From the IMG/VR virus record IMGVR_UViG_3300008255_000444, positions 1 to 25,516 of that record: DNA of 25,516 bases, one strand, 5' to 3'. Source of the stretch: a virus (Duplodnaviria > Caudoviricetes). The position numbers were made by a program, and so were the translations under genes. Positions 2,719-21,290 of the stretch are shown here, in pieces. A model generated the notes under the pieces. The model was given only the letters and a program-made list of their open reading frames with translations, had not been told where the DNA came from and did no database searches. Numbering within the stretch: the first letter of the stretch is position 1; every line of letters starts with the position of its first letter.

Positions 2719-3251
2719 AGCTTCTCCCCGAATTCGCCCTTTCCGTCCGCCAGCCTTGGGCCTGGGCGATCATCGCCGGCGGAAAGGACATCGAGAACCG
2801 GCACTGGGAATCGGTGCGCCGGGGCGGGATGGTTCCGGGGCGAATCCTGATCCACGCCAGCGGCCAGATGCTGCGCCAGGAATACGAGAGCGCCGCCGCC
2901 TTCATGGCCGAAATCGGCGACGCCTGCCCGCCCGCGGCAGCGCTTAGGCGCGGCGGCCTGATCGGCGCCGTGACGGTGACGGGCGTCGTCTCGGCCCCTT
3001 CGAGCCCGTGGTTCTTCGGGCCGCGCGGCCTCGTTGTGGCCGAGCCGGAGGAGATCGACTTCATCCCGGCCCGCGGGCAGCTCGGCTATTTCCGCTGGAG
3101 CCGCGCCGGCGAAGACTACGCACCCCCGCCCCGGCGAGATGGATGCTCGAAGGCGCCGCGCCGGACGCGCCGCCGACGCCGCCGCGCTTCTGCCCGCCAA
3201 ACGCGAGACGCTGGAGATAGAGGAAGCGCGCCGCCCGCTCGAGATCCGTGA
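2715..3251 (+). CDS. ASCH domain protein (C-terminus probably frameshifted or disrupted)
   Basis: ALSVRQPWAWAIIAGGKDIENRHW, ILIHAS, GGLIGAV, PWFFGPRG, FIPARGQLGYF; after ~3125 the frame becomes Arg-rich nonsense and overlaps the dam fragment. Confidence 0.85.
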   Translation: MKLLPEFALSVRQPWAWAIIAGGKDIENRHWESVRRGGMVPGRILIHASGQMLRQEYESAAAFMAEIGDACPPAAALRRGGLIGAVTVTGVVSAPSSPWFFGPRGLVVAEPEEIDFIPARGQLGYFRWSRAGEDYAPPPRRDGCSKAPRRTRRRRRRASARQTRDAGDRGSAPPARDP

Positions 3252-3567
3252 GCGTCTCGGCCGGCACCGCGCGGAGACGCTGGAACTCGGCCCGGCTCGC
3301 GACCTGGAAACGCAGCACGTCGATGAACTGCGGATAGTGCCGCTGCAGGATCCGGAAGAGGTTGATGATCTCCCCGTCGATGTCGTTCACGACCTCGGCC
3401 GGCGGCTTCGCCGCGCGGCGGAAGAAGACGCCGCCCATGCCCACGAAGGGCTCGGCGTAGGTTCGATGGGGGATGCGCGCGATCCGCTCGGCCAGCGTAG
3501 CTGCGAGCCGGTGCTTGCCGCCGAGCCAGGGCGCGACCGGCTCGATCGGCGAAATGGGCGTCAACAT
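3061..3567 (-). pseudogene. dam: Truncated D12-class N6-adenine (Dam-like) DNA methyltransferase; recognisable sequence ends at ~3185
   Basis: PVAPWLGGKHRLA, YAEPFVGMGGVFF, EVVNDIDGE, TDLERAARFLYLQRLAFGG; the catalytic DPPY half is not seen in any downstream minus frame. Confidence 0.85.
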
Positions 3568-3592
3568 AATGGAAACCGCCTTCGGGCAATGT

Positions 3593-3697
3593 CCGCTCGC
3601 CCCCTCGGGGGCCGGGCGGCCGAAAGGTGTCGACGGTCGGCGCGGCGGCGTGTGGAGCACAGGCCGTGTGGCGGGGGGCGGGAGACCGCCCTCCGCC
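3593..3697 (+). ncRNA. Candidate four-hairpin structured RNA upstream of dam (possibly D12-methyl RNA motif-like)
   Basis: Back-to-back stems 3593-3619, 3620-3640, 3641-3668 and 3670-3697; last stem closed by a GAGA tetraloop; G-U pairs favour the + strand. Confidence 0.5.
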
Positions 3698-4370: not shown

Positions 4371-4562
4371 TTAGAAGCGGCGCATGGACGTCTCGACGAG
4401 GATGCCGGCGGCGACCCCGACGCCGGCGAAGATCAGCGGCAGCATCCAGACGGCCGCAAACGCCGCCGGAACCCAGATCGTGACGAGGAGGAACGGGATC
4501 GAAAAGAGCAGACCCACGACGCCGCCGAGAGAGCCGAGCAGGACCGGCACGAGCCAGTCCAT
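4371..4562 (-). CDS. Small two-TM membrane protein (63 aa), holin/antiholin candidate
   Basis: MDWLVPVLLGSLGGVVGLLFSIPFLLVTIWVPAAFAAVWMLPLIFAGVGVAAGILVETSMRRF; TGATG coupling with endolysin stop. Confidence 0.7.
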   Translation of the reverse strand: MDWLVPVLLGSLGGVVGLLFSIPFLLVTIWVPAAFAAVWMLPLIFAGVGVAAGILVETSMRRF

Positions 4563-5197
4563 CACACCGCCCTCGGGCAGTCGCCGCGCCCCAGCGGGCA
4601 GGCGCTCGCCGTGGCGGGGGCCTCGCCGATCAGGCGGAGCGCGGCCTCGAACTCGCGGGCGTAGGCGGCGATCTCCTCGGCCCGGTCCGTCCCGTTCACG
4701 ATCCGGCGGGCCTCGACGTAGTCGGCGCGGGCGTCGTCGAAATGGTCGGCGAGGCTCCTGCCGGTGAACGTGCCGCGGATCATGCCTTGCCAGAGCACCT
4801 TCGCCGCGATCTCCGGCTCCGCCGCGCGCTCCGGCGCGTTGACGAGATCGACGCCGGTCAGCAGCGTCATCCGGGCGTAGTTGGCGAGCCAGGTGAGCTG
4901 GACGAAGCCGCGCCCGTGATAGCGCGCCCGCTTCGTGATCCGGGAGCCCGTGCCCATAAGCGCCAGATCCTCGCCGTAGGCGCGCCCCTCGCCCTGGCCG
5001 ATCTCCTCCATGTGCCGGAACCGCCCCGTCTCGTGATAGGCCGTCGCCAGCACGTAGGCGCACTCCGTGAGCCGGCGCCCGCGCGCCTCGCCCTCGTCGA
5101 TGATCCGGTCCAGCGGCTCGCGCTGCCAGTCCGGCAGGGAGCCGCGGAAGAGCGAGGCGGCGACGGCGGCGTGGAAGCCGGCGCGGGCGGGATTCAT
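4562..5197 (-). CDS. Endolysin, glycoside hydrolase family 19-like
   Basis: YVLATAYHETG, RYHGRGFVQLTWLANY, ARRIVNGTDRAEEIA. Confidence 0.9.
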   Translation of the reverse strand: MNPARAGFHAAVAASLFRGSLPDWQREPLDRIIDEGEARGRRLTECAYVLATAYHETGRFRHMEEIGQGEGRAYGEDLALMGTGSRITKRARYHGRGFVQLTWLANYARMTLLTGVDLVNAPERAAEPEIAAKVLWQGMIRGTFTGRSLADHFDDARADYVEARRIVNGTDRAEEIAAYAREFEAALRLIGEAPATASACPLGRGDCPRAV

Positions 5198-5589
5198 GGC
5201 CGCGGCTCCGGATAGCCGCGCCGCCCGGTCAGCTCCCGCGCGACGATCTCCCGCAGGTCGGCGGCGATGCCGTCGAGCCGGGACTGGATCGCCCCGAAGC
5301 GCTCGTCCGCGACCCGCGCGGAGCCCTCGACGGCGGCGAGCCGCACGTCGTTCGCGCGCGCCAGCGCCTTCGCCTCCCGCGCCAGCTCATCCGTGTCGGA
5401 GAGCCGCTCCATCGCCGAGCCGACGACGACGGCGCCGCCGACCACCCCGCTCCCGATCGCCAGCGCGACGCCGAAGAACGCCCGGAGGAGGAAGACGCGG
5501 AACGCCTCCAGCTTCTCGCCCTGTTTCTCGAACCGCTCGTCCATGTCCGCCCGGAGGCAGGCGATCTCGTCAATCTCGCTGTCGGTCAT
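5194..5589 (-). CDS. Lysis-cassette membrane protein (one TM plus coiled coil, 131 aa)
   Basis: ATG 5589 after GAGGA; TM FLLRAFFGVALAIGSGVVGGAVVV then heptad-like helix; ATGA overlap with endolysin start. Confidence 0.7.
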   Translation of the reverse strand: MTDSEIDEIACLRADMDERFEKQGEKLEAFRVFLLRAFFGVALAIGSGVVGGAVVVGSAMERLSDTDELAREAKALARANDVRLAAVEGSARVADERFGAIQSRLDGIAADLREIVARELTGRRGYPEPRP

Positions 5590-5611
5590 CGCCGATCCTC
5601 GCATGATGTCG

Positions 5612-5745
5612 CTCCTGCTCGCGCCGCCCAGAGAGGGCTGACGTCTCCCGGCGGCCTCAGCCCCGCCGGCGGCTTCCCCGCAACGCAACGCCGGGGCGGC
5701 TCCGGGGGGTGCTCCGGAGCCGCGACGCACGCAACTAGTTCGTGA
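5612..5745 (-). promoter_or_regulatory. Structured intergenic leader before the lysis cassette
   Basis: Perfect 10-bp stem GCGGCTCCGG/CCGGAGCCGC (~5696-5723) plus nested GGGCTGA/TCAGCCC and GCCGCC/GGCGGC stems; no U-tract. Confidence 0.4.
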
Positions 5746-5751
5746 CGGCGG

Positions 5752-8700
5752 TCACACCGCCGCCCCCGCCATGAGCCACGGATCGGCGTTCACCGCCGCC
5801 GCGCCGCCGTCCAGCCGCTTCAGGAGCGTCAGGCCGGAGCCGTTGTCGATCTCATACTGCGCGTATCCGATCTGGAGGCCGGCGTTCCAGAAGTTGCCCG
5901 CCCCGCTCTTGCTGGCGATGGTGAGCCGCCGGTTGCCCGCCGAGGGGAATATCCCGGTGTTGGCGTTGAGCGCCTGAACCGGGAGCGCCACGTCGTTGAT
6001 CGAGACGATCATCTCTTGCGTCACCAGATTCACGTCCACGACGTATTTCCGCCAGGAGTCGGTCGGGAATATCTCCACATTGTAGGCCCCGGCAAAGAGC
6101 CCCGTCAGCGCGCTGTCCTTTGTGTCCGGCCCCCAGACGAGAACCTGCCTCGTTCCGCGGTTCATGTGCAGGTTGAACCAAGTCCCTTCCGATCCTCCGA
6201 GATAGGTCGTGCTGGAGCCGAGCGGCAGGGTCGAGGCCGGAACCCGCGCGACCACCTCGAAGCGGACGCGGAACGTCCCGGCGGGCAGGGCCGACGGATC
6301 GCGCCAATGCGGCGCTGACACGCCCTGCGTCCAGAACGTCGCCGGGACGGGCTCAGGAATGCCCGGAGCCTCGAAAATGTCGCTGTAGGTCTTGATGCAG
6401 AACCCGCAGAAACGGTCCGTCGCGCTCGAATTGGTGTAGGCCGCGACGTGCTCGATGGGGATATCCAGCATCAGCTTTTCCGCGTCGCTGAGGTGAGACG
6501 GATAGACATACCCGGCGTCGCTCCGGGAGAACGCCGGACCCCAGAGGAACGTGATCTGATCGCCGGGAGAAAACGCCACTTCCGGAGTGATGCGGACGGT
6601 CGTGTCGTTCTGGAGCGTCACCGTGCCCTGATATTTCGTGGCGATACCGGTCGATCCGGGCCGCATGATGTAGAAGCGACCGTCCGGGTCTGCGACGCGG
6701 AGGATTTCAAAGCCAGCGACCTCCTGCCAATAGTCGGACGGGGAGGCCGGATCGGCGATGCCCTTGACCTTGCGCTTGGTCGAGAGGACGCCGCCATTCG
6801 CGGGGGTGAAGCTGATGTCGGCGTAGGCGCCGCCCGGAGCGACAGTGATCGAGTCGAACGCGGCTTCATCTGCGGAGAGCCCTGCCGCCCTCAGAAACGA
6901 CGGGAACGCCATGTCGAACATCGCCTCATACTGGCCCACGGGGTCAGTGACGATTGGATGCGCCCCGTTGCTCCACCATGTGAACGCAGGCGGGCCGTAT
7001 TTTCCGCCGAGCGCGACGAAGCGGCTGTCCGCGACGAAACTCTCCACGCCGATATACCGGCTCTCGCTGTCGCCATCCCACGGCCCCTTGCGGACAATAT
7101 CGAGCGGGACGCTGCGCTTCAGAAGGCCGCGCCCGAGCGTGTCCGTATCGGCGCTCTCGAAGTCGTAGATGCAATGATCGACCACAGCCGATGGAGAGAT
7201 TGTCGCCGTGCTGCGGGTGTTTCCGAGGGTGAAGGCCGAGCCGTCCGGGTTCTGGCCGTAGTAGATCGCCGCCATGTTGGCGAGCCAGTTCGGCATCGCG
7301 GTTTGGTCGTTCGCCCACCAGAACTCGCACATGCGGTCGATGCCGCCGTAATCCGCCACGGCTTCTGCCACCATATCCGCAGAGCGCGCCCAGATGCGGT
7401 CGTTGTTCGCGTCGTCAACCCATCCCGTGCGCCCCGTCCCCGGCTCGCACAGATCGACGAACGCGAACTGCCGCCCCGGCGCGACGTGGTTCAAGGCGTT
7501 CGCCATGACCACCATGGCAGGATTGACCGTGAGCCGGTTGGCGCTGGTGAGCACGGTTTTCGTTGTGGTCGTCTCCGCCGTCAGCCCGGCACCGTTGCGC
7601 TGATAGATCGTCAGGTTTTCGGCTTCGAGCGCGGGAGGCGTGAGCGTCTGGTAGATGCCCCCGCGCTCCGAGACGTAGGCGAATTCGGACTGGCCGAGCC
7701 CCGCGATGACGATGGGCGAAAGTCCCGGCGCGTAATTCTCATTGACGCTCCAGCCGGCGCCATCCAGCGCAGTCCCGAATGTCGCGGCCCCGCTCCCGAT
7801 GGCCCCGTAGTCGCCTACCGTCCCCGTCCCGCTATTGTCAGCATCCGCCGGGCCGAAGGGCTTCATCGCGAACGCCGAGAGGAACTCTTCAAGCGTCGTG
7901 ATGTTGAAGTTCGGGGCGACGAAGACGTCCGCGTAGGCGTGGATCGCCCCGCCGTCCCCAATCACAAGGCTGTCCGTATCCGTCGCGCCCTCCGTCGCAA
8001 CCTCGACGATGTTGCCCTTAAACTGCGGCGGGTTGACGAGGGCGACGTTTCCGAGCCGCATCTGCGCTGTTCCGTCCCCGTTCAGAGACTTGAACTGGTT
8101 GCTGTAGACGTCGCCGCCGTCCATCTTGCCCAGAGTGCAAGGATGCCCGCCGGTAAGCATGGTGGCGTTGGCGCAGATCGTCCAGTCCTTCGCCACCCAG
8201 TCCGCCGTCCCGGCGTTGGTGAAGAACCCCTGTATGTCCCTCCCCCTCGCGACCGCCGGGTTTTCCCAGCCTACGCATTGCTCGATCCGCCCGGCCTCCA
8301 CTGCCGCCCCTGCGGTCAAGGCTGTCTGGAACTGCAACAGGTCGATATGCGGATTATCCAGATCGGAGGGCCTGCCAATCATCGTGTGATAGACGTTGTG
8401 AATGAACCACTTCTTGACGCTGGCGGGCTCACACCCCGAACCCCAGGTGATCGTCACCGGGTCGCTGTAGGTGCGGAAAATCTCGTTGTCTCGCAGGATC
8501 AGCTCGTCATGGCACTTCCAGCTTATCCCGGCTCTTGTGTCGTAAATCTGATTGCGCTGCATCGTCAGCTTGCCGGGGTCGCCGCCCGACCCCGCCGTCC
8601 AGACGAATGCCTTCGGACAGTTGGAATACGACCCCACCGCCGAATAATCTGCGTCCGGGCCGGGATCGCGATAGACGCCGTGAATCTTGGAGTCCTCCAC

Positions 8701-9318
8701 CACGACATCACCGCAACTGCCGATCATGTTGACGACGGCGAGCGTCCCCGTGGTTTCATGCACATCGAGGCCGCGCAGAACGACGTTCTTCGAGTTCTCG
8801 AACTGCATCCGCCCGACGATGACCGCGCCATCCTCCGCCGTGATGACCAGCGCCGGGTCATAGGTGATGTTCCTCGCGATCCGCTGCGCCTCGTCCGCGA
8901 TGGACGTCGTGTTGTCCTTCCGATACTCGACCTCCGTCCCGACGCCTCCCAGAGCCTCGGACGCCGCCTTGCACTCGGTATTGTTCAGGACCGTGCATCC
9001 CGCCACGCTCGCATCTATGGTGGCGGTGAAGCTGTCCCCCGCCGTCGTGGTCAGCGTGAGCGTCTTCCCATCGTCCACACCCGGCGTTCCGTTCGCGATC
9101 AGCCGCCCGCCGGAAATGCTCCACGTCCGCGTCGCGCCGGTCTGGTCGTCAACCGTGGCGAGGTCCACCCGCGCGCCCGATGCCGTGAGAGGCCGCCACC
9201 CGCCCGCCCCAGCGAGCGTCGATGCCCGGAACGCCGCCGTCTGGCTGGAGACGGCCGCCCCCCCCCCACGCCGCGCGATGCGCGCGACGAAGCCGGCTGT
9301 CGCCCGCGCGGCGAACAT
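5752..9318 (-). CDS. 1188-aa putative head-spike fibre / polysaccharide depolymerase: parallel beta-helix, SGNH-esterase-like domain, C-terminal LamG/ConA-like beta-sandwich
   Basis: ATG 9318 overlaps the ghsA-like stop (TGATG); repeated beta-helix rungs (KNVVLRGLDV, DVVVEDSKIHG, LTMQRNQIYD, LILRDNEIF, HIDLLQF); IAGLGQSE...PGTG...WANDQ...NGAHP pattern. Confidence 0.75.
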   Translation of the reverse strand: MFAARATAGFVARIARRGGGAAVSSQTAAFRASTLAGAGGWRPLTASGARVDLATVDDQTGATRTWSISGGRLIANGTPGVDDGKTLTLTTTAGDSFTATIDASVAGCTVLNNTECKAASEALGGVGTEVEYRKDNTTSIADEAQRIARNITYDPALVITAEDGAVIVGRMQFENSKNVVLRGLDVHETTGTLAVVNMIGSCGDVVVEDSKIHGVYRDPGPDADYSAVGSYSNCPKAFVWTAGSGGDPGKLTMQRNQIYDTRAGISWKCHDELILRDNEIFRTYSDPVTITWGSGCEPASVKKWFIHNVYHTMIGRPSDLDNPHIDLLQFQTALTAGAAVEAGRIEQCVGWENPAVARGRDIQGFFTNAGTADWVAKDWTICANATMLTGGHPCTLGKMDGGDVYSNQFKSLNGDGTAQMRLGNVALVNPPQFKGNIVEVATEGATDTDSLVIGDGGAIHAYADVFVAPNFNITTLEEFLSAFAMKPFGPADADNSGTGTVGDYGAIGSGAATFGTALDGAGWSVNENYAPGLSPIVIAGLGQSEFAYVSERGGIYQTLTPPALEAENLTIYQRNGAGLTAETTTTKTVLTSANRLTVNPAMVVMANALNHVAPGRQFAFVDLCEPGTGRTGWVDDANNDRIWARSADMVAEAVADYGGIDRMCEFWWANDQTAMPNWLANMAAIYYGQNPDGSAFTLGNTRSTATISPSAVVDHCIYDFESADTDTLGRGLLKRSVPLDIVRKGPWDGDSESRYIGVESFVADSRFVALGGKYGPPAFTWWSNGAHPIVTDPVGQYEAMFDMAFPSFLRAAGLSADEAAFDSITVAPGGAYADISFTPANGGVLSTKRKVKGIADPASPSDYWQEVAGFEILRVADPDGRFYIMRPGSTGIATKYQGTVTLQNDTTVRITPEVAFSPGDQITFLWGPAFSRSDAGYVYPSHLSDAEKLMLDIPIEHVAAYTNSSATDRFCGFCIKTYSDIFEAPGIPEPVPATFWTQGVSAPHWRDPSALPAGTFRVRFEVVARVPASTLPLGSSTTYLGGSEGTWFNLHMNRGTRQVLVWGPDTKDSALTGLFAGAYNVEIFPTDSWRKYVVDVNLVTQEMIVSINDVALPVQALNANTGIFPSAGNRRLTIASKSGAGNFWNAGLQIGYAQYEIDNGSGLTLLKRLDGGAAAVNADPWLMAGAAV

Positions 9319-9584
9319 CAGGTGAGCACCAGAGCATGGATCTGCGTCGCCGTCGTGCCGGTGGCCCGCACCCGCTTCACGCCGCAGAGAATCCACCCGA
9401 AATCGGAGACGCCGACCGTCCGCGTCTCGCCCTTCTGGCTGACGAAGGAGACGTCGCCCGCCCCCTCGACATAGAGCGCGATCGCGACGTCGGGCAGGTC
9501 CGCGTCGTCGTCCGGCGTCACCGGCGCGTAGTCGAGGCCCGGCCCGGCGATGCCGAGCGAGCGGGTGTCGAAGGGGTTGGCCAT
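9318..9584 (-). CDS. ghsA: Head-spike base protein, RcGTA Rcc01079 (GhsA) family
   Basis: MANPF...GPGLDYAPVTPDDDADLPDVAIALYVEGAGDVSFV...VKRVRATGTTATQIHALV matches the family pattern I recognise; GAGGAG SD. Confidence 0.85.
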   Translation of the reverse strand: MANPFDTRSLGIAGPGLDYAPVTPDDDADLPDVAIALYVEGAGDVSFVSQKGETRTVGVSDFGWILCGVKRVRATGTTATQIHALVLT

Positions 9585-9612
9585 GTCGGTCTCCTCGGTC
9601 AAGAAAGTCGGG

Positions 9613-9897
9613 TCAGGCGAGGCGGAAATGCGCGTCGAGCGCGGCCTGGTCGGCGGCGACGCCCATCACCTGCGCGAGCGCGAGCAGGTCCGGGTCGAGC
9701 CGTTCGTAGATCTCCGCGTCGTCGATCTTGATGCGGAGCCGCTCGGCGTCGGCGGCGGTGATCGCCTGCGCCGTCTCCAGCCCGTCGATGGCCGCGTGGA
9801 CGTTCGCCTTGGTGACGCCGATGGTGAGCGCGTAGATCCAGAACCGGGTCCGCTTCAGCGTGTCGGGCGCGGCGCGGTTGGCGACCACGAGGCTCAT
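9613..9897 (-). CDS. Small helical phage protein, possible tail-fibre assembly chaperone (94 aa)
   Basis: ATGA overlap; ...AEIYERLDPDLLALAQVMG...ALDAHFRLA resembles post-fibre chaperone C-termini. Confidence 0.65.
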   Translation of the reverse strand: MSLVVANRAAPDTLKRTRFWIYALTIGVTKANVHAAIDGLETAQAITAADAERLRIKIDDAEIYERLDPDLLALAQVMGVAADQAALDAHFRLA

Positions 9898-10328
9898 TCC
9901 CCGCCCTCGCCGACATCGACGTCGAAGGCGGCGCCCTGCGCCGGCCAGAGCTCGTCCACCACGAGGCGCCACGCGCCGGGCGCGCCGATCTCGACGGAAA
10001 GCGCCCCCGCGCCGTCCGCCTCGTCCGCGCCCATCTCGACGGGCGGATCGAGCGTCGGGTCGATCACCCGCACCGTCGCCCCCGGCGGGAGCCCCTCCCA
10101 GAGCGCCGCCGCCCCCGCCGTCAGCGCTGGCGGCGCGGCGGGCGCCGGGCGCGCCGCCAGCGCCGGCCCCGCCGCGACGTAGTGCGACGCGGCGGAGACG
10201 GCGCCGCCCTCCACGATCACCCAGTCCTCCCCCGGCTCGAACGGCTGGTCGGCGAGCGTCTGGTCCGGGAAGGAGAGCACCCGGTCGATCGCCGCCGGCG
10301 CCGCGCCCTGAAACACCGCGATCATCAT
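9894..10328 (-). CDS. Phage tail-associated hypothetical protein (144 aa)
   Basis: ATGA overlap with tail-tip stop; GLPPGATVRV...PGAWRLVVDELWP beta-rich C-terminus. Confidence 0.7.
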   Translation of the reverse strand: MMIAVFQGAAPAAIDRVLSFPDQTLADQPFEPGEDWVIVEGGAVSAASHYVAAGPALAARPAPAAPPALTAGAAALWEGLPPGATVRVIDPTLDPPVEMGADEADGAGALSVEIGAPGAWRLVVDELWPAQGAAFDVDVGEGGE

Positions 10329-13300
10329 GCCCAGGACCCCACGACCGCCGCCCGCCAGTCCTCCTTGGCGAGCGTCCCCGTCCCCGTCTTCACCGTCTCC
10401 AGCCGCACCGCCCGGGTCCCGGCGCCCGCGAACGAGGCGTTGCCGAGGAGGAAGAAGGTGAAAGTCTCCGTCTTCGCGGTGCTTGAATCCGAGCTGATCG
10501 AGAACCGCTCCGTGTGCCGCACCACCCCGTCGATCAGGAGCGAGAAGTCGCAATGAAGCGCCCCCGATTGCGCCACCGTTTGCGAGAGTGTCACCTTCCG
10601 CCGCGCCCATACCGTCACCGATCCGCCGCGCGGCATCACGACGTTCGTCATCGTGACGTTGAGCGCGGAGCCCCCCCCCGCGAACCAGTAGGAGACGGCC
10701 CCGTTCGCCAGCCGCCCGGGCCCGATGGACTCGCCCTTCAGGACGAGGTCGCCGTCGATGACGACCTGCCCGCCCTCGACCGTGAAGATCGCCTTCGTCT
10801 CACCGTTCGACGGATTCCTAACCTGAAACTTGTCGGACGCGAAAATCACCAGATTCGCGTCAAATTTCATGAATGAGTTGTTCGGAAGCGCCCCGATCGT
10901 CCGCCGCGCGACCGAATTGCCCGCCGTCACCGTGAGGATGTCGAACGCCGTCGCCTCGCCCTCGAAATTCGTGAACGCGGTCTGCACGGCGGAGACGGAG
11001 GCCTCCGCCGCGGCGAGCCCGGTCACGTCCTCTACCCGCGGCGCGAAGATCGCAACCCGGCCCGCGGCGGCGCCGACGGAGTTGATCGAGCCCTTGAAGG
11101 CGCGGGTCGCGAAGTTGATCGTCACGTCGATTGAGAAGAACCCCCAGGAGCCCGTCCCGGCGGCGCGCACCGTCGCGCGGGAGAACGCGGTGGACTCCGT
11201 CACCCCGTCGGGCAGGAGGAGCCGAAGGCCGAAGCGGAGCGTCCGGTCCTCGTTGGAGCGGCTAAATCCCCACCCCGAAATCCGCAGAGTCCGCCCGGCG
11301 AGGTTTCCCTCTCGCCACTCGGATTCGTCCACCGTGCCGGCGCCCGAGTTGACCACATCAATCGCCAGATTGAGCCCATCCACAAATCCCGGCGGGCGGA
11401 ACGCCGCGACCGAGACAGTATAATCGCCGGTCGCCGTCCAGAGGCCGACCCCGGCGTCGAACTGGTCGGTGACGATCATGTTCGGCCGGGAGAGGCGCGC
11501 CCTGACCACCTGATCCGCCGCCGCCCGCGCGGTCGTCTCGTCCGCGATCGCCGCGATCCTCTGCGCCGTCTCCGCCGCGAGGTCGCCCGCGAAGGCGTCC
11601 GTCGCCGCGACGGCGATCCCCGCCTGGTCCAGCGCCTCCGCCGCCGCCGCCTCCGCCGCCGCGATCGCCGCGTCGATCTCCTCCGGCGAGAGCGAGGTCG
11701 GCGTCGTCGCCTCCAGCGGGCCGAAGGCGCCCGATTCGTTCCCGGATCGATCAATCGCGGAGACGAAATAGCGGCGCGTCACACCCGACGGCAGGCCGAG
11801 CCGGACGAAGGAGACGTCCGCCGCGCCGGGCGGCGCCGCGACGTCGAGAATCGCCAGCGTCGCGCCGAAGGCCGCCCCGCTCGCGCCCTCGTAGAGCCGG
11901 AGCGCCGCGAGGTCGCGGTCCGCCGGCGTCCCGATCACGAAGCGGAAGCCCCCGGCGATGGGGAAGATCGCGCCCGAGGTCGGGATCGCCGGCGGCGTCA
12001 CGTCCCCCGCCGGCGTCACCGACCCCGGCCCGCCGCCGACCGAGCGGATTCCGAGCGTGTTGACCGAATAGACCAGCACGGTCGCGCCCGCCGTCGCCGA
12101 GAGGCCGAAGATCTGGAATTCGAGCGCCGTCGTCCGCGCCGAGAAGGTCCGCCCGCCCTGCGTCCACTCGACCTCGTAGCGGTCGAAATAGAGGAGCCCC
12201 GCCGCCGGCTCCTCCCAGGCCACGTCGAGCCAGCGCGTCACCGTCCCGTCCGGCTCCACCCGCCGCGCCGCCGTCACCGTCACGTTGACCGGCGGCGGGG
12301 AGAAGAACGGGTCCGGCAGGGTGGAGGAGAGGGACTCGGGCGGCTCCGTCGCCGCGCCCTCGACCCAGCCCCAGAAGGAGGGCGCATCCTCCAGCGCGAC
12401 GATCTCCACCCGCGGCCCGTCCGGGTCGAAGACGGCGCGGGATTCGATGATCTCGAACACCCCCGAGAGCCCGATCGCCGCGAGCGCCAGCGTCACCCGA
12501 TGCCCGGGCAGGAGCGCGGCGTTCAGCGCGGAGAAGGGAACCGACGCCGCGACCTTGCGGAGCCGCCGCGTCTGGCGGAGCGCGAGGAGCGCGAGGCGCG
12601 AGGCCCGCTGCCACTTCGTCTCCCGCGCGAAGTCGAGCTCGAGGAGCCGCGCGTCTTCCGGCGCGCCGGAATAATCGTCGAAGATCACCGTCTTGAATTG
12701 CTCCGCCTGAAAGCGCGCGCCGCCGCCCTGCGGCCGGAACGTCCCGCGGACGCCCTCCCATTTCTCCTCGACCAGCGTCTCCGCCGTCACCTTCAGAGGC
12801 GCGAGGAAATCGTCTTCGGCGAAATCGGCGACGGGCGCGGAATAGGCCCCCGGCTGGATCACCAGCCGATCCCCCGCGTTGACCAGCCCGCGGAGATTCC
12901 CGCCCTGCCGCAGCCATTCGCCGAGCGCCTCGCGCGGGATCACGTCGGAGGCAAAGGCTCCATTCATTTCATAGCGCGGAATCGTCCCGCCGCCGGCGAT
13001 GGAGACGCCCTCGTCGCAGATGTTCGCGGCCGCCGAGACTTCGGCGTCGGAGAAGCGGGCCGCGGGAATCCCCCCGCGCCGGATCAACCAGTCGCGGAAG
13101 CAAAGCGCCCAGTTCGCCGACCAGGCCGTGAGGCCGGAGCGCGGGTCGAAGACGCGGGCGCCCCGAACCCGGAACCAGAGCTTTTGCGGCAGGCCGTCCG
13201 GCCATTTCTTTTTGACGTTGCGAAAGCGGATGTAGCACCAGGCGCGCCCCGTGACCTTGAAGGTCGAGTCGATCTTGCCGTCGAGCCCGGCGAGCATGTC

Positions 13301-13768
13301 CGTCGGGGTCGAGGGCGCCGGCCCGCCCAGCCGCACCGCGAGGATCACCCGGTCGGTGTAGTCGGCGTCGAGCCCCCCGGCGAGGGACCAGATGCGCCGG
13401 TCCCCGTCCCAGATTTCGAGCACATCCTCGATCCGGTGCCCGGCGATCACCCATCCGGTGATCAGGTCGCGCCCCTTCTGGTCGCTCGATTCCTTCCAGA
13501 CGTTCGCCACCCCGCCGACCCGGCATTCGCCGTAGACGTCCGGCAGGAAGAGCGGCGTCGGCTGGCGGATCGAGGCGTCGGGCGCGAAGGTCTTCGGCTT
13601 CGGCGCGAGGAGGGAGGAGAGGCCAGCGCCGGCGGCGGCGACCGCCCCGGCGGCGACGATGGAGCCGACCGCCGCCGACGTCGCCAGCGCGGCGAAGCCC
13701 GAGGCCGCGCCAAGCGTGATCGCCTGGCTGGCCGCCGCGGCGAGGGCTACTCCGGCGACCGCGGGCAC
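10325..13768 (-). CDS. Tail tip / host-specificity protein (lambda gpJ-like central fibre) with FN3 domains, coiled coil and carbohydrate-binding-like insert
   Basis: GTG 13768 after GGAGG; YGECRVGG, VRGARVFDPR..TAWSANWALCFRDWL, AANICDE, FN3-like LDVAWEEP..RYEVEW and YFVSAIDRSGNES, FASDKFQV..FTVEGGQVVI. Confidence 0.88.
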   Translation of the reverse strand: MPAVAGVALAAAASQAITLGAASGFAALATSAAVGSIVAAGAVAAAGAGLSSLLAPKPKTFAPDASIRQPTPLFLPDVYGECRVGGVANVWKESSDQKGRDLITGWVIAGHRIEDVLEIWDGDRRIWSLAGGLDADYTDRVILAVRLGGPAPSTPTDMLAGLDGKIDSTFKVTGRAWCYIRFRNVKKKWPDGLPQKLWFRVRGARVFDPRSGLTAWSANWALCFRDWLIRRGGIPAARFSDAEVSAAANICDEGVSIAGGGTIPRYEMNGAFASDVIPREALGEWLRQGGNLRGLVNAGDRLVIQPGAYSAPVADFAEDDFLAPLKVTAETLVEEKWEGVRGTFRPQGGGARFQAEQFKTVIFDDYSGAPEDARLLELDFARETKWQRASRLALLALRQTRRLRKVAASVPFSALNAALLPGHRVTLALAAIGLSGVFEIIESRAVFDPDGPRVEIVALEDAPSFWGWVEGAATEPPESLSSTLPDPFFSPPPVNVTVTAARRVEPDGTVTRWLDVAWEEPAAGLLYFDRYEVEWTQGGRTFSARTTALEFQIFGLSATAGATVLVYSVNTLGIRSVGGGPGSVTPAGDVTPPAIPTSGAIFPIAGGFRFVIGTPADRDLAALRLYEGASGAAFGATLAILDVAAPPGAADVSFVRLGLPSGVTRRYFVSAIDRSGNESGAFGPLEATTPTSLSPEEIDAAIAAAEAAAAEALDQAGIAVAATDAFAGDLAAETAQRIAAIADETTARAAADQVVRARLSRPNMIVTDQFDAGVGLWTATGDYTVSVAAFRPPGFVDGLNLAIDVVNSGAGTVDESEWREGNLAGRTLRISGWGFSRSNEDRTLRFGLRLLLPDGVTESTAFSRATVRAAGTGSWGFFSIDVTINFATRAFKGSINSVGAAAGRVAIFAPRVEDVTGLAAAEASVSAVQTAFTNFEGEATAFDILTVTAGNSVARRTIGALPNNSFMKFDANLVIFASDKFQVRNPSNGETKAIFTVEGGQVVIDGDLVLKGESIGPGRLANGAVSYWFAGGGSALNVTMTNVVMPRGGSVTVWARRKVTLSQTVAQSGALHCDFSLLIDGVVRHTERFSISSDSSTAKTETFTFFLLGNASFAGAGTRAVRLETVKTGTGTLAKEDWRAAVVGSWA

Positions 13769-19214: not shown

Positions 19215-21290
19215 TCAGGCCTGCGGGTTCTTCCAGCCGCCGCGATAGTCGCTCGCGCCCAGCCCGAAGTCGTGCTCGAGCGTCAGGGACATCCCCTGCC
19301 GGCCAAACGGCTCCTCCATCCGCACTCGCGGCGCCTCGGCCCCGTTCAGATAGCCGTAGACGAAGCAGGCCGCCCCTGGCGTCGCCGGATCGGCGAAGAG
19401 ATACCAGGGGTTCGCCGTCAGGTGCGCCGTGGTGACGACCTGCAGCTTGCCGACGAACGGGTTGAAGTTGCCGGCCGATTCCGCGGAGATCGGCGCGACG
19501 TGCTGCTCCGCCAGCGTCTCGTGCTGCGGCGGCACGACCAGATAGCGCGGGGCGACGTTGATCTTCTGCCCGCCCAGCGTCGTCTGCGCCCGCATCGCCG
19601 CCCGGCCCGCCGCGAGCGTGGTGACGGAGATCGCGGCGCCTGCCGAAGCGAGGTTGCCGTGGTCGGCGTGGAAGACCCGCTTTCCGTCGGAAAGCAGCGT
19701 TCCCGCCGCGTCGAAGAAGGCGTAGAATTTCGCCTCCTCGAAATGCGCGATCGAGGCGCCCTGGTCGGAGAGCACCTGGTCGATGGCGTTCAGGTCGTCG
19801 TTGACGATCATCTCCCGGCTGAGGGACATCCCGATACCGTAGGCGGAGAGCACGGCGACCTCGCGATTGTCTCCGAACGTCCCCCACTTGATTTCCCCTG
19901 CCTGGCCGACCGGCTGGAGCTGCGGGAAATCGCCCGTCCGCACCATCGGATGCGGCCGGAAGTCGTTGAAGTTCCGCTGCCGCGCCAGCATGCGGTAGGT
20001 CGGCTCCTGCCGCTGGTAGCGCTCCAGAAGCCCCTTGTTCAGGGCGTTCTCGAAGATGCCCACGAAGTCGGAGGTCGTGTGGAACGCCGCCATCATCACC
20101 CGCTCGCGGTCGGCGTAGCGGATCAGCGAGCCGTCATGGCCGACGGCCTCGGCCGCCATCTCGACGATCCCCTTCGCCATAAAGGGCTTCGCCCGGTCAT
20201 CTTCCGGCGCCGCGCGGTTGATCCGGGCGACGAGCGCGGCGGACATGCCCGCCCGCATCGTCTCCCGCTCGTCCCGCAGGATGCGCGGCGTGGGGCGCGG
20301 CGCGTAGCCGGATTCGCGGCTCCCGGAGGCGTCGGCCCACATGTCGATGATCTTGGCGCGGGCCTGATCGACGCTGAGGCCCTCCGCGATCATCGCCGTC
20401 GCCGCATCCGGGTCCAGCCCCGCCTTCCGCACCGCCGCCATGATCGCCGCGCTGCGCTCGCGCTCCGCCTTCACGGCGGCGGCGGACGCCGCCTCCGCGG
20501 CCCTGGTCATGTCGGCGGCGGTCATCGTCACCCCGCCTTCCAACGCGGCGCCGTCGTTCTCGTTGTGCGACGTCGGGGTCGTCCCGCCCGCCTTGTCCTT
20601 CTCTTTGTCGGTCATCGCGACCTCCTTCTGCTTGGCGGCGGGCGAAGCCGCCGGTGAAGGGCGCAGACCATCTGCGCCCCATTTCTGACGCGCCGCCATC
20701 GCCACGAGGCGATCCGGCGCGGATGCGTAAAGCTGATAGGGAAAGGCCATGGCCGCGGCGCGGACCTCGCGCTCCCGTGCCTCGACGCGGTCGGCGAAGC
20801 CGCGCTCGACGGCCGCTTCCGGCCCCATCCACACCTCTGCGCGCATGATCTCCCGCGCCTCCTCGGCGGTGATCCCGGCGCGCCGCGCGTAGACGCCGGC
20901 GTATGTGTCGGCGATGGCGTTCAGCGCGTCCGCCTGCCTCTGGTGATCCTCCGCCGTCCCCCGCGTGAAGGCGGAGGGATCGTGGATCATCATCAGCGCG
21001 CCTTCCGCCATAACGATCTCGTCGCCCGCCATCGCGATCAGCGACGCGGCGGAGGCCGCGACGCCCTCGACGATCATGATCACCCGCCCCGGCAGGCCGG
21101 AGAGGACGGCGTGGATCGCCGCGCCTTCCATCGGGTCGCCGCCGCCCGAATTGATCCGCACCGTCAGGTCGCCGGAACGCCCGGAGACGAGGTCGCGCAC
21201 GTCGGCGGCCTGCAGCCCGTCATCGTCCCAGAAGTCGAGCCCGACGGGCCCGTGCAGCAGCAGCTCACCGCTCGCGAGTTTCGCTTTCAT
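19215..21290 (-). CDS. ClpP-like prohead protease / major capsid protein fusion
   Basis: VRINSGGGD, GVAASAASLIAMAGD, MMIHDP, EVWM..EAAVERGFAD; capsid part HTTSDF, DFRP, GEIKWGT, SREMIVNDDL, LFHADHGNL-like, DYRG. Confidence 0.95.
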   Translation of the reverse strand: MKAKLASGELLLHGPVGLDFWDDDGLQAADVRDLVSGRSGDLTVRINSGGGDPMEGAAIHAVLSGLPGRVIMIVEGVAASAASLIAMAGDEIVMAEGALMMIHDPSAFTRGTAEDHQRQADALNAIADTYAGVYARRAGITAEEAREIMRAEVWMGPEAAVERGFADRVEAREREVRAAAMAFPYQLYASAPDRLVAMAARQKWGADGLRPSPAASPAAKQKEVAMTDKEKDKAGGTTPTSHNENDGAALEGGVTMTAADMTRAAEAASAAAVKAERERSAAIMAAVRKAGLDPDAATAMIAEGLSVDQARAKIIDMWADASGSRESGYAPRPTPRILRDERETMRAGMSAALVARINRAAPEDDRAKPFMAKGIVEMAAEAVGHDGSLIRYADRERVMMAAFHTTSDFVGIFENALNKGLLERYQRQEPTYRMLARQRNFNDFRPHPMVRTGDFPQLQPVGQAGEIKWGTFGDNREVAVLSAYGIGMSLSREMIVNDDLNAIDQVLSDQGASIAHFEEAKFYAFFDAAGTLLSDGKRVFHADHGNLASAGAAISVTTLAAGRAAMRAQTTLGGQKINVAPRYLVVPPQHETLAEQHVAPISAESAGNFNPFVGKLQVVTTAHLTANPWYLFADPATPGAACFVYGYLNGAEAPRVRMEEPFGRQGMSLTLEHDFGLGASDYRGGWKNPQA

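Follow-up and report, generated by a model that had tools for sequence, protein, structure and literature searches.

The window analysed here is a 25,516-nucleotide stretch of a tailed virus (Caudoviricetes; IMG/VR record IMGVR_UViG_3300008255_000444), and our subject is a pair of adjacent minus-strand genes within it that encode an 88-amino-acid (aa) protein, P0001, and an 1188-aa protein, P0002. P0001 is a spike base of the GhsA family, known from the head of the gene transfer agent (GTA) RcGTA, and P0002 may be an enzyme-bearing fibre that plugs into this base. P0001 matched the NCBIfam spike_base model NF048002 over its full length at 90 bits (curated cut-off, 28 bits), its residues 5-82 matched RcGTA Rcc01079 (PDB 6TB9) with E 9e-4 in phmmer, and it matched phrog_12296 with E 4.9e-15; a match to PDB 8CJZ, ‘Spike Base Protein’, was weak (E 0.05). 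The PHROGs annotation for a base of this type is ‘tail fiber’. The first-pass annotation had called the 88-aa gene Rcc01079/GhsA-like, which these matches bear out, and the gene overlap and N-terminal peptide it had quoted were found in the sequence as given: the TGA stop of ghsA and the ATG start of the P0002 gene have one base in common (TGATG). A separately assembled contig covered positions 4588-9654 with 0 differences; its run (X1) is possibly the source DNA itself.

The head spike of RcGTA is composed of GhsA and GhsB (Rcc01079 and Rcc01080; PMC7296036, PMC5026251, PMC10218006); base pentamers are described on 11 vertices, each holding one fibre chain via its first ten residues. The window resembles this system in its homologous base, in the order of a small gene and then a fibre gene, in a likely N-terminal docking and in a probable capsule target, whereas it belongs to a tailed phage whose capsid protein is fused to ClpP. 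Unlike GhsB (325 aa, Leu-Gly anchor), P0002 bears predicted enzymes and has no Leu-Gly anchor. We found no Rcc01080 match for the P0002 body in a PDB sequence search, and no direct pairwise comparison was made; P0002 likely works like GhsB but is not classed here as a member of that family. A fusion of ghsA to the fibre gene by -1 frameshifting has been suggested for RcGTA (PMC5026251); we rejected it for the window, where ghsA has no slippery heptamer of the tested pattern. We propose, with a probability of about 0.5, that P0002 is a GhsA-plugged head fibre that binds, de-O-acetylates and likely cuts the capsular polysaccharide of the host from the capsid corners.

Predicted domains of P0002

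The whole of P0002 had no significant match in Pfam, PHROG, NCBIfam or PDB sequences and no match among 50,697 phage records, and a profile scan of viral contigs found no relatives. A search of 1.84 billion representatives yielded 240 relatives, and the best 150 of these cover residues ~20-530 or ~531-985/1188 and seldom both. A whole-length alignment of 102 sequences was misaligned in its N-terminal half and hence dropped. All three domains that the first-pass annotation had guessed, a pectate-lyase-like beta-helix, an SGNH esterase and a lectin-like domain, were recovered (Table 1).

The beta-helix region reached an Atlas score of 0.96, and its profile matched the pectate lyase 7XKS with E 4.8e-6, a match that spans just ~170 profile positions in the early coils; PF13229 was present in 12 of 30 aligned members. 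The conserved residues H324 (49/49), D326 (47/49), D286 (46/49) and Q329 (44/49) suggest a catalytic or metal site; the domain is a candidate polysaccharide lyase or hydrolase. Polysaccharide lyases of family PL1 carry the signature motifs WIDH and RxPxxR. Neither was seen by eye in P0002, and its relatives conserve HxDxxQ instead, so it is not classed here as PL1.

Residues 531-1188 were modelled by AlphaFold2 (AF2) with a predicted local distance difference test score (pLDDT) of 87.7. The best fold match of residues 531-983 was the CE20 acetylesterase XAC1771 (7KMM), with a Foldseek E of 4.7e-10, a Z score of 19.1 and an rmsd (root-mean-square deviation) of 5.0 over 321 residues. Conservation followed the SGNH blocks, with Q543 and S544 of the block I GQS each in 107 of 108 members, G627 of block II in 106/108 and H787 of block V in all 108. 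The domain is like CE20 and SIAE proteins (XAC1771 7KMM, Fl8CE20 9H4U, SIAE 8F9O) in joining an SGNH fold to a beta-sandwich, with a GQS nucleophile and a catalytic His; unlike them, it is only ~10-14% identical and is fused into a phage late-gene product. From the model and the conserved residues, P0002 is very probably an active esterase, and de-O-acetylation is its best-supported predicted activity. Residues 992-1188 matched the LamG domain of PAPP-A (Z 14.6, rmsd 3.1, 175 residues), and PF13385 was found in 8 of 35 members of this region.

Table 1. Positions of the ghsA pair, the predicted parts of P0002 and other genes of the window
Feature	Position	Strand	Basis
ghsA-type head-spike base, 88 aa (P0001)	9318..9584	-	NF048002, 6TB9, phrog_12296
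GAGGAG, resembling a ribosome-binding site, 6 nt upstream of ghsA	9591..9596	-	sequence
Slot protein P0002, 1188 aa	5752..9318	-	start overlaps ghsA stop; contiguous in second assembly
P0002 residues 1-20, candidate anchor peptide and Gly linker	9259..9318	-	likeness to N-termini behind closest bases
P0002 residues 26-105, small domain without known fold	9004..9243	-	phmmer stretches; precedes beta-helix in many homologues
P0002 residues 106-530, predicted right-handed parallel beta-helix	7729..9003	-	Atlas, profile, PF13229, conservation
P0002 residues 531-983, predicted CE20/SIAE-like SGNH O-acetylesterase and beta-sandwich	6370..7728	-	AF2, 7KMM, conservation
P0002 Ser544	7689-7687	-	esterase domain
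P0002 His787	6960-6958	-	esterase domain
P0002 residues 992-1188, predicted LamG/ConA-like lectin fold	5755..6345	-	fold match, PF13385
Central tail fibre gpJ, start uncertain	10325..13759	-	phrog_5616, phrog_31
ClpP-major capsid fusion	19215..21290	-	PF25209 + PF00574
GH19-like endolysin	4562-5197	-	phrog_181, E 3e-27

The slot behind ghsA and its N-terminal anchor

We surveyed the position downstream of ghsA (the slot) at 244 loci, made up of the best 80 each of 171 viral, 245 genome and 344 metagenome matches and 4 of 25 phage records; the set is redundant and includes the window's own contig (L161). A tightly coupled downstream open reading frame (ORF) was present at 213 of the 244 loci. 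The complete slot ORFs numbered 182, with a median of 290 aa; nine had at least 600 aa, and P0002 was the longest. Their bodies formed 97 clusters, in which the domains were LamG, Gly-rich, Ig and SASA or could not be assigned. By leave-one-out scoring, 78 of 111 dereplicated N-termini lay beyond the 99th background percentile, giving the slot proteins a common N-terminal signature. The slot tolerates other anchors, because the canonical Leu-Gly repeat was carried by only 16 of 112 N-termini. These figures support the view, put forward by the first-pass annotation as a ‘modular socket’, that the slot behind ghsA holds what appear to be swappable payloads.

The survey also returned a second putative esterase payload (L085:6264-7499, plus strand), in a cluster of 10 loci whose representative matched Pfam SASA PF03629 with E 2e-22. 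In a cluster of 14 viral loci (L068), a 105-aa BppU_N-like ORF takes the place of an anchor gene after ghsA, and the fibre may be elsewhere. The ghsA homologue of RcGingersnap (L243:6001-6294) lies amid non-structural genes before a helix-turn-helix gene, and that of RSJ5 (L244:5001-5195) is unannotated.

The genes behind the two bases closest to P0001 (L162, 89%; L163/L001, 82%) start MLRLAATPWFVSA, resembling the N-terminus of P0002. The BLOSUM score of P0002 against this type of N-terminus was 29, compared to a 99.9th percentile of 25 and a maximum of 39 in a background of 1854. The slot bodies of L162 and L163 showed no BLAST similarity to P0002, and both phages carry a tail-fibre-type gene of their own. 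Across 118 representatives, from which 18 non-fibre rows had been dropped beforehand, anchor similarity tracked base identity among unrelated bodies (rho 0.38, with 0.11 as the highest value in 300 shuffles). Of the 150 payload-module homologues, 22 started with a canonical phi-G-phi-[GS]-phi anchor, versus 6 of 1854 background ORFs. The G+C content at third codon positions (GC3) was 0.92 for P0002 residues 1-25 and 0.92-0.93 for anchor plus base, like the core genes, and 0.83 for the enzyme modules, as expected if the cargo had been swapped in. A complex prediction with four copies of GhsA, whose natural assembly is a pentamer, and P0002 residues 1-30 scored 0.01 (mark, 0.32), which counts neither for nor against docking.

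Three observations were made on related loci. Downstream of the closest base, the slot (L162:4587-6230, plus strand) holds a protein that is not related to P0002 and shows motifs like those of TIM-barrel glycoside hydrolases; Pfam, NCBIfam, PHROG and PDB gave no support for such a hydrolase. Behind a ghsA that falls in the same subfamily as the window's (66%; L274:8811-9497, minus strand) comes a 137-aa ORF whose Phe/Ala/Arg-Gly N-terminus is similar and which overlaps a 1023-aa gene of the esterase module. A related ghsA that differs from window positions 9316-9596 at 40 of 281 bases was present in runs of three studies, and in run X1 its loose end reads as an anchor of the L162/L163 type.

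The window as a whole is a siphophage late region on the minus strand, in which Pfam and PHROG matches gave the order terminase and portal, capsid, cement, tail tube, tape measure, distal tail, gpJ, two small ORFs, the ghsA pair and lysis genes. The ‘lambda-type capsid’ of the first-pass annotation held in part: terminase and portal are of lambda type by Pfam, whereas the capsid protein is a ClpP-fused PF25209 accompanied by a cement protein of PF09956, in place of lambda gpE and gpD. The head of Paracoccus phage Pben1 is of the same type (portal 47%, protease-capsid 45%; capsid part of the fusion 53.7% identity), and this phage carries both tail fibres and a ghsA with a canonical-anchor gene, in which SGNH-like motifs were seen by eye. 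Virion proteomics was not found in the available part of the Pben1 paper. The ORF at 3061-3660 (minus strand) appears truncated or frameshifted; its start resembles that of a phage adenine methyltransferase.

With its gene lying between gpJ and the lysis genes, P0002 might instead be a tailspike, or a depolymerase associated with the tail, that recombination brought in behind ghsA, with the base left bare or vestigial. Tailspikes with SGNH domains exist (Pan3 9VYH, G7C gp63.1 4QNL), and P0002 is like them in having an esterase-fold, polysaccharide-modifying domain; its anchor is atypical. Those tailspikes are tail-bound, whereas we detected no tail-attachment domain in P0002: residues 1-105 matched no such family in PHROG or Pfam. 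In addition, relatives that have their own tail fibres still carry a similar slot N-terminus, and both enzyme modules are found close to ghsA in capsule clusters, where no phage tail genes were detected. We consider a tailspike rather unlikely, and keep it under consideration because no other lateral fibre gene was seen.

Another alternative is that P0002 is released or only loosely held, and acts at lysis as a soluble enzyme that degrades capsule or biofilm, like the TspA of RcGTA. That tailspike is reported to be detachable (10.64898/2026.07.19.739414), the capsid esterase gp84 of phage phi24B is apparently cleaved from its capsid anchor, the P0002 anchor is degenerate and its gene adjoins the lysis module. 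That the gene is tightly coupled in translation with an intact ghsA, and that relatives with unrelated bodies retain an anchor-like peptide, argues against release, which we regard as quite improbable.

Capsule clusters and the candidate substrate

We searched for homologues in 401 genomes from the order of Oceanibium sediminis, the Rhodobacterales. A ghsA gene was present in 156 of the 401, and the profile of the C-terminal half of P0002 matched 13, two of them via LamG alone. In 9 of the 15 C-half regions fetched, ghsA lay within 8 kb, and in a tenth genome at ~9 kb. All nine of these esterase regions were located amid polysaccharide-biosynthesis genes (wzy, wzx, wza, glycosyltransferases), five had an acetyl- or acyltransferase by Pfam, and eight of the nine genomes had a GTA-type distal-tail marker. 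An acetyltransferase accompanied 7 of 9 esterase loci versus 6 of 55 control loci, an enrichment that we treat as a lead only because five queries came from these nine loci, their regions were longer and seven of the nine are kin. Among the beta-helix homologues, the best (27% over 558 aa) begins with an anchor-like sequence and is found 2.4 kb behind ghsA, its cluster containing wzy, GT2 and acyltransferase genes; the chromosomal homologues of both enzyme modules near ghsA had mostly anchor-like N-termini. Since the homologues of the modules sit by ghsA in capsule clusters, we infer that the substrate of P0002 is O-acetylated capsule or exopolysaccharide (EPS) of a Rhodobacterales host. The ghsAB genes of R. 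capsulatus (rcc01079-80) are likewise reported to adjoin capsule genes (PMC5026251).

With a limited query set, a polysaccharide-biosynthesis gene was found within 6 kb in 30 of 80 chromosomal ghsA loci (L081-L160) versus 0 of 80 viral ones. A host beta-helix family with HxDxxQ was observed in Wzy-type clusters (L300, L302, L303, L265, L266, L273), its profile matched 56 of the 401 genomes, and its members are possible host capsule-processing enzymes.

A head-mounted P0002 might also bind and de-acetylate only, the beta-helix gripping the polysaccharide without cutting it, so that cycles of binding and de-acetylation move the particle through the capsule. The slot evidence fits this alternative just as well, the esterase holds the firmest catalytic evidence in its fold and in the conservation of Ser544 and His787, the pectate lyase match of the beta-helix is limited to its early coils, and the RcGTA fibre itself is described as a binder. 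However, H324, D326, D286 and Q329 are kept like an active or metal site, and the HxDxxQ motif was present in 8 of the 8 host beta-helix proteins checked in capsule clusters, and we consider a fibre that only binds and de-acetylates unlikely.

A candidate head-mounted enzyme fibre

Several results weigh against the enzymatic head fibre that we favour. The alternating (Ile/Leu)-Gly anchor (RcGTA residues 2-10) is absent from the N-terminus of P0002, which reached only the 90th background percentile under the generic slot profile; beyond the two closest loci its anchor did not follow base identity (rho 0.015), part of the anchor-base covariation would be expected from linkage alone, and 128 of 150 payload-module homologues lack the canonical anchor. 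In the base, the cation ligand Glu12 of Rcc01079 aligns with Ala13 of P0001; since Ser and Ala prevail in this column among the relatives of P0001, the ligand is an RcGTA detail that is not family-wide. Some phage ghsA homologues (RcGingersnap, RSJ5) have no anchor gene behind them. Within the window gpJ is the only other large receptor-binding candidate, and the PHROG search showed no separate lateral tail-fibre gene between gpJ and ghsA. The beta-helix is without a confident model because full-length AF2 with a four-sequence alignment gave a pLDDT of 32.5. The second-best fold match of the esterase region was the Pan3 tailspike (Z 16.9), followed by other CE20s and SIAE. The 108-member alignment has no conserved Asp or other acid before His787; bacterial CE20 motifs are given as GQSNM and DxH, and for SIAE a Ser-His dyad is reported (PMC12313940). 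P0002 has GQSE and no such DxH acid, and its esterase is for this reason classed as CE20-like only. Among the nine chromosomal esterase genes, two are directly coupled to ghsA, seven form one clade and one is split, and their identity to P0002 is 23-25%.

With these points taken into account, the slot and anchor evidence indicates that P0002 is probably head-mounted, and if it is, cleavage of the polysaccharide backbone by the beta-helix appears rather likely from its conserved site. A GhsA base pentamer would sit on the capsid pentamers of the window phage, formed by the ClpP-capsid fusion, at the vertices, and one P0002 chain would dock in it by the variant N-terminal anchor. The LamG domain would grip the capsule, the esterase would remove O-acetyl groups and the beta-helix would cut the backbone. 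The head would thus attach first and open a path through the capsule until gpJ gets to its receptor. The ghsA and anchor may have been resident, with the payload behind them exchanged for modules drawn from a pool common to the head-spike genes of Rhodobacterales capsule loci.

A carbohydrate esterase on a capsid has already been published, on another mount: gp84 of phi24B, a NanS-p/SASA esterase, is described as a hexamer on face-centre hexons, attached via DUF1737 and proteolytically processed (10.64898/2026.04.10.717836). P0002 is like gp84 in combining a predicted carbohydrate O-acetylesterase and a lectin-fold domain in one protein, with probable display on the head; unlike the P0002 locus, gp84 has no separate base, and no beta-helix is described in the available part of that report. 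Homologues of ghsA are also known from RcapNL and prophages. A full-text literature search found no paper on enzymes in the GhsA socket; work on 8CJZ and Westbye 2016, beyond the reach of this search, may bear on novelty. The 8CJZ structure would be a base from phage Carin-1, a T7-like podophage, in which case bases of this kind are also present on the capsids of true phages.

More tentatively, GhsA may be a general peptide-in-socket display common to phages and GTAs and loaded with capsule-matched enzymes. Spike genes in capsule loci, beside O-acetyltransferases, would supply the modules, which in the window would be fused into a monomeric two-enzyme fibre that de-acetylates and then depolymerises from 11 vertices. 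Whether a short peptide loads a cargo of ~1200 residues onto a capsid vertex can be put to a direct test, for which the cultured phage Pben1 could serve as model. If true, the proposal would explain the report of ghsA but no ghsB homologues in other Rhodobacterales (Hynes 2016), with unrelated payloads having the anchor alone in common. Capsule depolymerases of phages are usually assigned to the tail, and the head spike of RcGTA is viewed purely as an adhesin; an esterase mounted on the head together with a lyase or hydrolase would, if true, alter the picture of capsule penetration and the annotation of such genes.

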